In this document: positions 25,945-31,213 of the stretch, one piece after another
Layout: every line of letters begins with the position of its first letter
How positions within the stretch are numbered: the stretch's first letter is position 1
Assembly: GCF_000026545.1 (NCBI RefSeq)
Contig: NC_011601.1
Origin: Escherichia coli O127:H6 str. E2348/69
GTDB taxonomy: Bacteria; Pseudomonadota; Gammaproteobacteria; Enterobacterales; Enterobacteriaceae
Reading direction: 5' to 3' (one strand)
DNA length: 64,000 nt
The notes under the pieces: model-generated
Seen by the model: the letters and a program-made list of their open reading frames with translations, nothing else
Told to the model about the DNA's origin: nothing
Databases searched by the model: none
Program-made: the position numbers and the translations under genes

Positions 25945-27063
25945 TTATTCTCCCCGTGAGTCAGCGTTATCTTTCTTTTGCTGACGACCCAGTTCACGCA
26001 CCGCCATCACGCTGACACCGGCAACCAGCCCAACCACACCGCCGAGCAAACCAATAGCGCCTGCCGAGACGTTGCCGCCTTCTTTAGCGTTAACGTCCGG
26101 TTTCTGTGAACGCGGAGTCTGGTTTTCGACGTTGGCAAGCTGATGGATGTCTTTATGGAAGCCGATACCTTCTTCGTTACAGCCATAGCACGGGTGACCA
26201 ATCGCTACCGGCCACACGCCGCCAACATCGCAGAATTGCAGCGTTGAGCAGTTGCCGTAAGTTTCTGGCCCTTTACAGCCGAGGTGGTACAGGCACCAAC
26301 CTTCGCGGTGGCCTTCATCACCGAACTCTTTGGCAAAACGACCAGCATCGAAGTGCGGGCGACGTTCACAGTGTTCGTGAATCAGACGACCATAGGCGAA
26401 AGTCGGACGGTTTTTGTCATCCAGTTTCGGCGGTTTGCCGTAAGTGATGATGTGCGCAACGGTCGCGAGGAAGTTGTGCGGGTTCGGCGGGCAGCCAGGA
26501 ATATTGATAACGGTTTTGCCCGGTAGAACTTCTTGCAGGCTGACTGCGCCAGTTGGGTTAACTCCAGCTGCGGCAACACCGCCCCACGCAGAGCAGGAAC
26601 CGATAGCGATAATGGCTGCTGCGCCTTCCGCCGCTTTGCGGATGTGATCCACAATCGGCTCACCGGCAACCATGCAATAAATACCGTTATCTTTTAATGG
26701 GATGGAACCATCCACCACTAACACATACTGCCCTTTGTACTTCTCGAGAGCGTTATGTTTGTTCTCTTCGACCTGATGACCGAAGGCGGCGGAAAGCACT
26801 TCGTGATACTCCAGAGAGATAGTCTCCAGCACGAGGTTTTCTACCGTTGGATGCGTTGCACGAAGCAGAGATTCCGTACAACCGGTGCACTCCTGCGCGC
26901 CAATCCAGATAACTGGCGGACGCTGCGGGTTAGTAACCGATTCGGCCATCTCTGCAGCGGCTTTGCTACTTAACCCCATGGTGGCGGCTAATGCTGCACA
27001 AAGCTTCATGAAATCACGACGGTTAATGCCGTGAGAATGGATGAGGGTGTTATCTCCAGTCAT
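25945..27063 (-). CDS. hybO: [NiFe] hydrogenase 2 small subunit HybO
   Basis: 372-aa ORF with Tat signal ([13 protein letters not shown]) and cysteine-rich Fe-S ligand motifs. Confidence 0.95.
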
Positions 27064-27251
27064 TTATAGTTATTCCGTTGCGAAGACCTGGCATATATTT
27101 TGCCTCAATCGCAAAATCAATAATGCGATCGATGCGCCATTTACCACACATTTATTATGGTTATCGATATCATGATACTGCGGCGGGGCACTAAAACGAA
27201 GGGAAGAAGCATTAGTGTAATTAATTAAAGCAAGATAATACGTATGTTTGA
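27064..27251. promoter_or_regulatory. hyb operon promoter region
   Basis: AT-rich 188-bp region immediately upstream of hybO (minus strand); no individual binding sites resolved. Confidence 0.4.
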
Positions 27252-27539
27252 TCAATTTTCTAGGCGATAACCAGCCATAAAAAAGCGCAACGTAGAACAG
27301 GAATTATTCTCACGAAAGAAATCCATTACCATCTCTTTATCCAGTCCATAACGGCGCGTCAGAATACCCGCTTCCCAGGCGCTAAGCTGGCGATCTCCGG
27401 TCTTTTCGTACATCCGGTGTGAGTAGCCTAATACAAAACCGCGTTTATAATCGGCACAGAATTTTGTCACATTAACCGCACTGTCGGCATGCGTTGCTTT
27501 TAATCCCGCCATTAAGCCTTTACCAAAATGGTTATTCAT
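27252..27539 (-). CDS. yghW: Small protein YghW (DUF2623-like)
   Basis: 95-aa [23 protein letters not shown]... recognised as YghW. Confidence 0.85.
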
Positions 27540-27657
27540 CGTTCACCTCATTCGCTATATATTGCCATATATAGCGATATTTTAGGCAAAGAACGACATT
27601 TGCGCACGCTATTTTTTCATGCTTGTTTAAGACGTAATCCTGTAAGAGATAAACCCA

Positions 27658-28545
27658 TCAGGAGAGATATTTATCGAACCATTTCAGCGTCCTTTGCCAG
27701 GCAAGATCGGCGGCAGATTTGTCATAACGGGGCGTGGAATCATTATGGAATCCGTGATTAACCCCCGGATATATATACGCCTCATAGACCTTATTATTGG
27801 CTTTCAACGCCGCCTCGTAAGCGGGCCAGCCCTCGTTGATTCGGCTATCCAGTTCAGCGTAGTGGAGCAGTAAAGGCGCTTCAATCTTCGCCACATCGGC
27901 AGTGGGTGCCTGACGCCCATAAAACGGCACCGCGCAGGCCAGTTCCGGATACGCGACTGCTGCCGCGTTCGATACGCCCCCGCCATAGCAAAATCCGCTA
28001 ATACCCACTTTGCCTGTCGCTTGCGGATAGCGTTGCATAAACTCAATTGCGGCAAAGAAATCATTCATCAGTTTGGTTGGATCAACCTGCTGTTGCAGCT
28101 CACGACCTTTATCATCATTTCCCGGATAACCTCCAACGGAACTTAAGCCGTCAGGTGCCAGGGCGATATACCCCGCCTTCGCCACTCGCCGTGCCACATC
28201 TTCGATATACGGATTCAGTCCACGATTCTCATGCACCACCACCACGGCTGGCGTTTTGCCGCTCATTTTTGCGGGCTTCACCAGATAACCCCGTACCTCG
28301 CCGTGACCATTTGGCGAGGGATACGTGATGTACTCAGCAACAATTTCCGGGTCGGTAAACTCTACCTGAGTCGCCAGCGCATAATTTGGCTTGAGCAAAT
28401 CAAACAGCGCTAATGCCGTCATCCCGCCCACCGCATACTTCGCCGCAAGGTTGAGGAACTCACGTTTCGAGATTTTCCCGTGAGCGTAATAGTCGTAGTA
28501 ATCCAGCAACTCTTGTGGGAAATCTTTGGCGGTTAAACGCGGCAT
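27658..28545 (-). CDS. yghX: Dienelactone hydrolase-family protein YghX (intact here)
   Basis: Start placed at MPRLTAKDFPQ..., preceded by a GAGGAG ribosome-binding site; alpha/beta-hydrolase of dienelactone hydrolase type. Remembered as a frameshifted pseudogene in K-12; uninterrupted in this window. Confidence 0.8.
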   Translation of the reverse strand: MPRLTAKDFPQELLDYYDYYAHGKISKREFLNLAAKYAVGGMTALALFDLLKPNYALATQVEFTDPEIVAEYITYPSPNGHGEVRGYLVKPAKMSGKTPAVVVVHENRGLNPYIEDVARRVAKAGYIALAPDGLSSVGGYPGNDDKGRELQQQVDPTKLMNDFFAAIEFMQRYPQATGKVGISGFCYGGGVSNAAAVAYPELACAVPFYGRQAPTADVAKIEAPLLLHYAELDSRINEGWPAYEAALKANNKVYEAYIYPGVNHGFHNDSTPRYDKSAADLAWQRTLKWFDKYLS

Positions 28546-28701
28546 CGTTGCACTCCTCAACTGGTGTTTTTTTAAGCAAAGCATAAGCGCGTGTTTTTGC
28601 CCAGTTTTTCGTCACTCTGTGAGCCAGACTACGGGATACGCGCTGGCGAATCGCTAAACTAGAAACATTGTTTCGAAATTGAACGATGGAAAGGAGAGGT
28701 C

Positions 28702-29010
28702 ATGGTCTGGTTAGCGAATCCCGAACGTTACGGGCAGATGCAGTACCGCTATTGCGGAAAAAGTGGTTTACGCCTGCCCGCGTTATCGCTCGGTTTATGG
28801 CACAATTTCGGTCACGTTAACGCGCTGGAATCACAGCGTGCGATCCTGCGTAAAGCGTTTGATTTAGGCATTACGCACTTTGATTTAGCCAACAATTACG
28901 GGCCGCCTCCAGGAAGCGCAGAAGAGAACTTTGGTCGCCTGCTGCGCGAGGATTTTGCCGCTTATCGCGATGAACTGATTATCTCTACCAAAGCCGGATA
29001 CGATATGTGG
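28702..29010 (+). pseudogene. yghZ: yghZ 5' fragment (aldo-keto reductase), interrupted by IS insertion
   Basis: Encodes MVWLANPERYGQMQYRYCGKSGLRLPALSLGLWHNFG...STKAGYDMW, then runs into the IS end, which supplies a TGA stop; the remainder of the reading frame resumes at 30440. Confidence 0.9.
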
Positions 29011-29034
29011 TGAACTGCACCCCAAATGTTGGAC
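29011..29034 (+). repeat. IS left terminal inverted repeat
   Basis: TGAACTGCACCCCAAATGTTGGAC, matching the reverse complement of the right end at about 20 of 24 positions. Confidence 0.75.
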
Positions 29035-29061
29035 ATAATCTGACATCTGAAGGTACAGTTT

Positions 29062-29555
29062 ATGAAACATTCATTTGAAGTAAAACTTGCCGCTGTAAAT
29101 CATTACCTGGCTGGTCATGCAGGCATCATTTCTACGGCAAAACTCTTTCAACTTTCTCACACCAGCCTCTCACACTGGATTAATCTTTTTCTTCTTCACG
29201 GTCCTCGGGCACTGGATTGCAGACACAAGCGTAGCTATTCTCCTGAAGATAAACTTTGCGTGGTTCTTTATGCTCTCGGGCATTCTGAGTCTCTACCCCG
29301 GGTAGCTGCCCGGTTTAACATTCCCAGCCACAACACGGTTAAAAACTGGATAAAAGGCTACCGCAAATCTGGTAATGAGGCCTTTATCAGGCGCAGGAAG
29401 GAGAAAAGCATGACCCGTTCTGATGATACCCATGAAAACGAGGCAAACATGACGCCGGAAGAGATGAAGAATGAGCTGCGTTATCTTCGCGCAGAAAATG
29501 CATATCTGAAAGCCATGCAGGAGCATCTCCTGGAAAAAAAGCGCCAGGAGCTGGA

Positions 29556-29583
<28 letters not shown>
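29062..29583 (+). CDS. insJ: IS150 transposase OrfA (InsJ, HTH DNA-binding)
   Basis: 173-aa ORF MKHSFEVKLAAVNHYLAGHAGIISTAKLF... recognised as IS150 InsJ; leucine-zipper-like C-terminal region. Confidence 0.9.
29535..29541 (+). other. Programmed -1 ribosomal frameshift slippery heptamer (A_AAA_AAG)
   Basis: A AAA AAG lies in the OrfA frame just before its stop, and the downstream OrfB is in the -1 frame; the classic IS3-family arrangement yielding an OrfAB fusion transposase. Confidence 0.7.
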
Positions 29584-31174
<1,591 letters not shown>

Positions 31175-31213
31175 CCTGTTAATAACGGGCGCGAGAACCG
31201 CGCCCGAATCAGA

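Follow-up and report, generated by a model that had tools for sequence, protein, structure and literature searches.

Among the described relatives of YghX, ClcD (carboxymethylenebutenolidase of Pseudomonas knackmussii; 1DIN, 4U2B) shares the alpha/beta hydrolase fold, and its Cys-His-Asp triad and the Glu beside the oxyanion region match YghX residue for residue at an overall identity of only about 25%. ClcD, with 236 aa, acts in the cytoplasm in the breakdown of chlorocatechol and, unlike YghX, lacks an N-terminal extension; as the chlorocatechol degradation pathway is absent from Escherichia coli, the substrate of YghX is probably unlike that of ClcD. The closest solved relative outside E. 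coli is the putative dienelactone hydrolase 3F67 of Klebsiella pneumoniae (E = 2e-23, 28% identity), which has the same nucleophile-elbow motif GFCxGG, belongs to another subfamily and is not a YghX ortholog. YghX itself is represented by 4ZV9, the protein of O157:H7 Sakai solved at 2.0 Å and deposited as 'uncharacterized protein', which corresponds to YghX from residue 59/60 on. The purified 4ZV9 protein ('EcoDLH') was inactive on the phosphotriesters paraoxon and FDDEP (preprint 10.1101/2025.10.30.685675). A role of yghX as cPHB polymerase was once suggested, with the motif GXCXG as sole basis (PMC3709699).

K-12 has the gene in a broken state. In MG1655, yghX is the pseudogene b4658, over whose 5' end the 47-aa yqhI (b4755) is annotated, and the RefSeq note for K-12 RV308 reads 'frameshifted'; both entries agree with the earlier note, which gives yghX as a frameshifted pseudogene in K-12. 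The small K-12 protein YqhI (MPRLTAKDF...) was shown to be translated (PMC6001520), and many metabolic-engineering papers use 'pseudogene yghX' as an integration site. That yghX is intact in E2348/69 and broken in K-12 is correct, already known and ordinary, most E. coli having the intact gene; the finding is on record in RefSeq, in EcoCyc-style annotation, in an NCBIfam 'exception' model and in a PDB entry.

We analysed a stretch of 64,000 nucleotides of E. coli O127:H6 strain E2348/69 (contig NC_011601.1), referred to as the window, in which yghX lies on the minus strand, a detail that the earlier note had not given. As that note had stated, one uninterrupted frame preceded by a good ribosome-binding site encodes the whole protein (Table 1). 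A 1.4-kb query around yghX was 100% identical to the EPEC E2348/69 chromosome, for which RefSeq annotates the CDS as intact (WP_001298390.1, 'YghX family hydrolase'). The gene order exbBD, yghA, yqhA, gpr, yghX, yghW, hybOABC is the same in K-12, and yghX occupies the orthologous position, divergent from gpr/yghZ and upstream of yghW and the hyb operon, in the order of MG1655. Mechanical ORF calling reaches an in-frame ATG at 28584 (minus strand), 39 nt further upstream, and so yields 308 aa. This start was rejected: it has no Shine-Dalgarno sequence, is unsupported by YqhI and the orthologs and lies outside the NCBIfam model. The start is placed at 28545, because K-12 YqhI, the NCBIfam model and the orthologs all begin there. 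The intergenic region towards gpr must hold the yghX promoter; a scan of 27200-28800 for consensus promoters and terminators gave no convincing yghX promoter, with counts no higher than in shuffled sequence, and an Rfam scan of 27000-29100 returned zero matches.

Table 1 Features of the yghX locus in the window (positions are those of the whole stretch).
Feature	Position	Strand	Basis or remark
yghX CDS, intact, 295 aa + stop	27658..28545	-	ORF reading, NF041440, RefSeq
Start codon ATG; stop codon	28545..28543; 27660..27658	-	888 nt, 295 aa
Shine-Dalgarno sequence GAGGAG	28553..28558	-	7-nt spacer upstream of ATG, read from sequence
yghX-gpr (yghZ) divergent intergenic region, 156 bp	28546..28701		
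Codons 1-58, conserved N-terminal segment	28372..28545	-	PF23678, alignments, AF2
K27-R28 codons, at twin-arginine position of distant relatives	28462..28467	-	
TA dinucleotide in codon Y37, present in window, deleted in K-12	28436..28437	-	
CC pair, codon 157 region, both C kept in window	28075..28076	-	
Dienelactone-hydrolase (alpha/beta hydrolase) domain, residues 84-294	27664..28296	-	PF01738
Cys186 codon, nucleophile in G-F-C-Y-G-G	27988..27990	-	aligns with ClcD Cys123
Asp233 codon	27847..27849	-	aligns with ClcD Asp171
His264 codon	27754..27756	-	aligns with ClcD His202

Both neighbours of yghX show features of their own. The gene gpr (yghZ, L-glyceraldehyde-3-phosphate reductase; 28702-31177, plus strand) is split at codon 103 by an insertion sequence of 1,429 bp (29011-30439), an IS3-family element that RefSeq places in the IS1397 family, with the terminal repeats TGAACTG[C/A]ACCCCAAA and a 3-bp TGG target duplication. 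The same junction between gpr and the IS was found in 25 of the 5,426 complete genomes, among them strains of O127:H6 and a single O25:H4 strain. With gpr split and yghX intact, E2348/69 is thus the opposite of K-12. In Enterobacter mori (contig L006, 4878-6888), a YghX homolog is divergent from a Gpr-type aldo-keto reductase that is 88% identical to Gpr, and on a metagenomic contig (L007, 6001-8108) a 68%-identical YghX homolog is followed in tandem downstream by a reductase 58% identical to Gpr; these two data points from gene order hint at a functional link between YghX and Gpr. On the short contigs (2-3 kb) of two other distant homologs, a conserved partner gene was not seen. Towards yghW, the intergenic region contains a perfect 11-bp inverted repeat, TCGCTATATAT-nnnn-ATATATAGCGA (27530-27600, minus strand; core palindrome 27552-27577), which as RNA is predicted to form an extended stem that sequesters the Shine-Dalgarno sequence and start region of yghW (ΔG -24.8 kcal/mol, z = -5.4, a stability that 0 of 200 shuffles reached). 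Its sole difference from K-12 lies in the loop, and it has no Rfam match. The repeat may serve to control yghW, either at translation or as an operator.

The assignment of YghX to the dienelactone hydrolase family made in the earlier note is borne out by profile matches and by the identity to 4ZV9, all of which lie far beyond chance. The NCBIfam model NF041440 (YghX family hydrolase) scored 586 bits against a cutoff of 460, with residues 3-294 covering profile positions 1-292 of 292, and PF01738 (DLH) scored 161.6 bits against a cutoff of 21, with residues 84-294 covering all of its positions (1-217/217). In the alignment to 4u2c, Glu106 corresponds to ClcD Glu36. Together with the three triad residues listed in Table 1, Glu106 is without variation among the ten orthologs aligned; among 33 distant members, D233 is present in all, and C186 and H264 are each at least 90% conserved. 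The AlphaFold (AF2) model of YghX has a pLDDT of 96.5, and Foldseek aligned it to 4ZV9 with a TM-score of 0.99 and an rmsd of 1.0 Å, and to ClcD 1din with E = 5e-17 and a TM-score of 0.84. Between residues 59 and 294, 4ZV9 is 97% identical to YghX of the window, with the same fold and the same triad. The two differ by a few conservative changes (S183 in the window versus T, Y229 versus F, S234 versus T, V69 versus F and S135 versus N). All sequence and structural criteria that we applied agree, and by sequence and predicted structure YghX is clearly an alpha/beta hydrolase of the DLH family. The E2348/69 allele is presumably also competent for catalysis.

To map the lesions of the K-12 gene, yghX of the window was globally aligned with that of MG1655. 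The two loci are about 97.6% identical at the nucleotide level, have the same start codon and ribosome-binding site and both lie between gpr and yghW. The earlier note had spoken of a single frameshift in K-12; the gene is indeed frameshifted, but by two lesions, not one, and the case in which the K-12 gene would be intact and identical to that of the window falls away. The first lesion is a 2-bp deletion of TA at gene nucleotides 109-110 (MG1655 about 3,147,633), and the second, near nucleotide 470 (MG1655 about 3,147,274), reduces a CC pair to a single C. Both TA and CC are present in the window, which rules out that its yghX is a pseudogene of the K-12 type. In frame 0, the K-12 gene encodes residues 1-36 and then 11 out-of-frame residues up to a stop, a product that matches YqhI exactly. 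The part for residues 38-157 stays open in the +1 frame, after which frame 0 is restored by the second deletion. With no stop in the +1 frame over residues 38-157 and the remainder back in frame 0, the pseudogene is young. Compared to a frame-repaired K-12 gene, yghX of the window differs by 21 substitutions, 18 of them synonymous and three conservative (S183T, Y229F, S234T). The only product of K-12 yghX is the 47-aa YqhI (b4755; 28405-28545, minus strand, in the window versus 3147597-3147740 in MG1655). YqhI, and so its namesake Pfam family PF23678, is therefore an N-terminal stump translated from the 5' end of the yghX pseudogene, and the glycosyltransferase-domain match that was reported for YqhI (PMC6001520) is probably spurious.

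Both lesions were typed across 5,426 complete E. coli genomes using allele-specific probes of 40-41 nt, designed so that no exact 28-nt megablast word can match without crossing the indel. At the second site, the intact CC was found in 4,221 genomes and ΔC in 1,198, so that 5,419 of the 5,425 genomes with the locus were typed. At the first site, 2,784 genomes had TA within the haplotype of the window, 844 had TA together with a neighbouring A117 SNP (e.g. O157:H7) and 1,251 had ΔTA, while about 546 genomes were left untyped by these probes. Among the carriers are K-12 derivatives, ETEC H10407 and many isolates from humans, pigs, poultry and water. The pseudogene thus occurs in at least 23% of the complete genomes, a share that is inflated by laboratory strains and that counts ΔTA and ΔC only; as wild isolates are included, it is a trait of a lineage and not a laboratory artefact. 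Strains CX08 and NCTC9008 carry ΔTA without ΔC and are annotated as frameshifted, which puts ΔTA first and ΔC later, inside the ΔTA lineage. The two counts differ by 53 genomes, a gap consistent with ΔC being nested in ΔTA. In strain IAL7254 (NZ_CM130001.1), our 1,401-nt query matched 1,402 nt, which means that 1 bp has been inserted at some point in the yghX region, perhaps as an independent lesion.

The segment in front of the catalytic domain consists of the YqhI-like domain (PF23678, residues 1-36, 75.9 bits), the motif SKREFL, which resembles that of Tat signals, a hydrophobic stretch and a final A-L-A. Across genera, residues 1-58 are near-invariant in the ortholog alignment. When 33 distant relatives of 37-68% identity were aligned, the S-K-R-E-F-L of the enterobacterial proteins fell onto a twin-arginine motif; the consensus of these relatives reads ...LYDxYxHxxxxRRxFL... 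and leads into a hydrophobic stretch rich in Ala and Gly, with an AxA-type site behind it. Of the 66 distant representatives that are full length, RR occurs in 43 and KR in 4, and several distant members carry textbook Tat signals, such as DRRGFMETLTKLTGSAAAAAVIAPMLAANQAQA. The Tat-signal profile TIGR01409 (cutoff 16.7) scored 20.6 bits on the N-terminus of one family member, and 16.1 and 14.7 bits on those of two others. YghX of the window has S-K-R-E-F-L in place of the S/T-R-R-x-F-L-K motif and thus no consecutive arginines, and its N-terminus gave no match to TIGR01409 or PF10518 even at E <= 10. The motif is followed by the uncharged stretch YAVGGMTALALF and then by K-P-N-Y-A-L-A58, with K36 and D49 interrupting the hydrophobic region. 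Peak hydropathy of the segment is 1.9, compared to 2.1 for the Tat signal of HybO, which is encoded 1.5 kb away.

KR variants of Tat signals remain Tat-competent (PMC1182353). Natural Lys-Arg signals, such as that of Salmonella TtrB, and Arg-to-Lys variants of SufI and TorA have K-R-x-F-L as in YghX; a region of moderate hydrophobicity behind the motif, ending in an AxA site, may be a further common trait. YghX differs from these signals in its n-region, which spans 26 residues, shows strong conservation and is predicted to be helical. Within the full-length AF2 model, residues 1-58 form three helices (11-21, 27-37 and 44-51) with pLDDT values of 91-95, the hydrophobic/AxA region being folded as a helix-loop-helix. 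The same helices were obtained when a 62-residue segment was modelled alone (pLDDT 86.5, pTM 0.69). A Foldseek search of this mini-domain against the PDB returned only generic three-helix matches with E > 3, and our literature search for Tat-exported dienelactone hydrolases yielded incidental co-mentions only. Judged from the alignments, residues 1-58 are homologous to a Tat signal peptide with an unusually conserved n-region, which YghX carries in a Lys-Arg form. By the strict criteria for the Tat signal peptide class, the arginine pair and a profile match, YghX falls outside it; the family context nevertheless supports the view that the segment may function as one. As aligned and modelled, a segment so conserved and so confidently folded is unlike an ordinary disposable signal peptide.

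Taken as a whole, these observations are best explained by an intact ancestral yghX, a stepwise loss in K-12 and a probable Tat-like export of the product, an explanation that we hold with good confidence. In K-12, the TA deletion in codon 37 cut translation short to the 47-aa YqhI, and the C deletion near codon 157 would have followed in a sub-lineage. The intact gene is ancestral, because other enterobacterial genera, with Citrobacter koseri, Pseudescherichia vulneris, Enterobacter, Kosakonia, Leclercia and Silvania as hosts, have full-length orthologs (294-299 aa, 85-92% identity, both Pfam domains present; mean identity of the ten aligned orthologs 92%). One could formally invert this order and regard the K-12 state as ancestral and the open frame of the window as secondarily repaired or recombined, given that the two deletions sum to 3 nt and the ends of the gene stay in frame. 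We give this reading next to no weight: the outgroups have the TA, the C and full-length proteins, which refutes it; most of the divergent E. coli have the intact gene, O157:H7 and B2 strains among them; and the intermediates with ΔTA only speak for stepwise decay, not repair. The proposal of the earlier note that this strain may retain the ancestral functional allele is supported by the orthologs, by the C kept in most genomes, by the excess of synonymous over non-synonymous changes and by the invariant triad; that the allele is functional we infer. Even so, an open frame might be a relic, already functionless or dispensable in this strain and not yet decayed. In favour of this, the complete genomes with ΔTA or ΔC have lost yghX at no obvious cost, the locus routinely serves K-12 engineers as neutral ground for integration, neither a phenotype nor a substrate is on record, and the adjoining gpr is itself disrupted in E2348/69. 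We nevertheless consider a relic improbable in view of the strong synonymous bias relative to K-12, the full length of the orthologs with every catalytic residue invariant, and the detection of the YqhI remnant, according to which promoter, ribosome-binding site and start are active even in K-12.

The N-terminal segment itself allows more than one reading, and here our preference is weaker. We lean towards a Tat-type export signal whose n-region is unusual in being structured and conserved, a choice that the RRxFL consensus of the family, the TIGR01409 scores, the HybO-like hydropathy, the competence of KR signals and the 4ZV9 construct, from which the depositors had removed residues 1-58/59, favour slightly over the alternatives. 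YghX would then most likely fold in the cytoplasm, be exported to the periplasm and be cleaved after Ala-Leu-Ala58. Residues 1-58 could instead be permanent: if the hydrolase is cytoplasmic, they would be a cap or a regulatory mini-domain of three helices; otherwise they would form an uncleaved Tat-dependent membrane anchor of the kind found in Rieske proteins, whose Tat-signal profile PF10399 scored 20.8 bits on the N-terminus of one family member. Such a permanent role would agree with the confident and identical helices in both models, with the near-invariance of the segment across Enterobacteriaceae and the family-wide conservation of the (L)YDxYxH motif, with its status in Pfam as a domain of its own (PF23678), and with the KR and the missing Tat-profile match of the window protein. 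It is less easily reconciled with the textbook Tat signals of distant members, with the score of one family member above the TIGR01409 cutoff, with the conserved AxA-type site and with a catalytic domain that folds and crystallises without the segment; moreover, the AF2 confidence is compatible with cleavage after export. We therefore see a permanent cap or anchor as a minority reading, which we doubt. More speculatively, and with lower probability still, the N-terminus of the whole family may combine a Tat-type signal (RRxFL, with KR in enterobacteria) with the (L)YDxYxH n-region as a three-helix unit of the cytoplasmic precursor, or may be such a unit that outlasted the loss of export as a cap or anchor.

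The discovery value of an intact yghX is small, as it already has a RefSeq annotation, an NCBIfam model of its own and a crystal structure. What our analysis adds are the exact coordinates of two sequential lesions in K-12, the spread of the pseudogene through complete E. coli genomes beyond laboratory strains, and the identification of YqhI as the translated stump of yghX. Functional work on YghX needs a non-K-12 allele, and it should retain the conserved Tat-like N-terminus, which was removed in all structural and biochemical work so far. If the speculative view of the family N-terminus is true, the structured signal could serve as a pro-peptide or in quality control, keeping the cysteine hydrolase masked or stable until export; alternatively, the segment could have been kept as a cap or anchor after the KR clade lost export. 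Either version would represent an undescribed kind of hybrid between signal peptide and domain.
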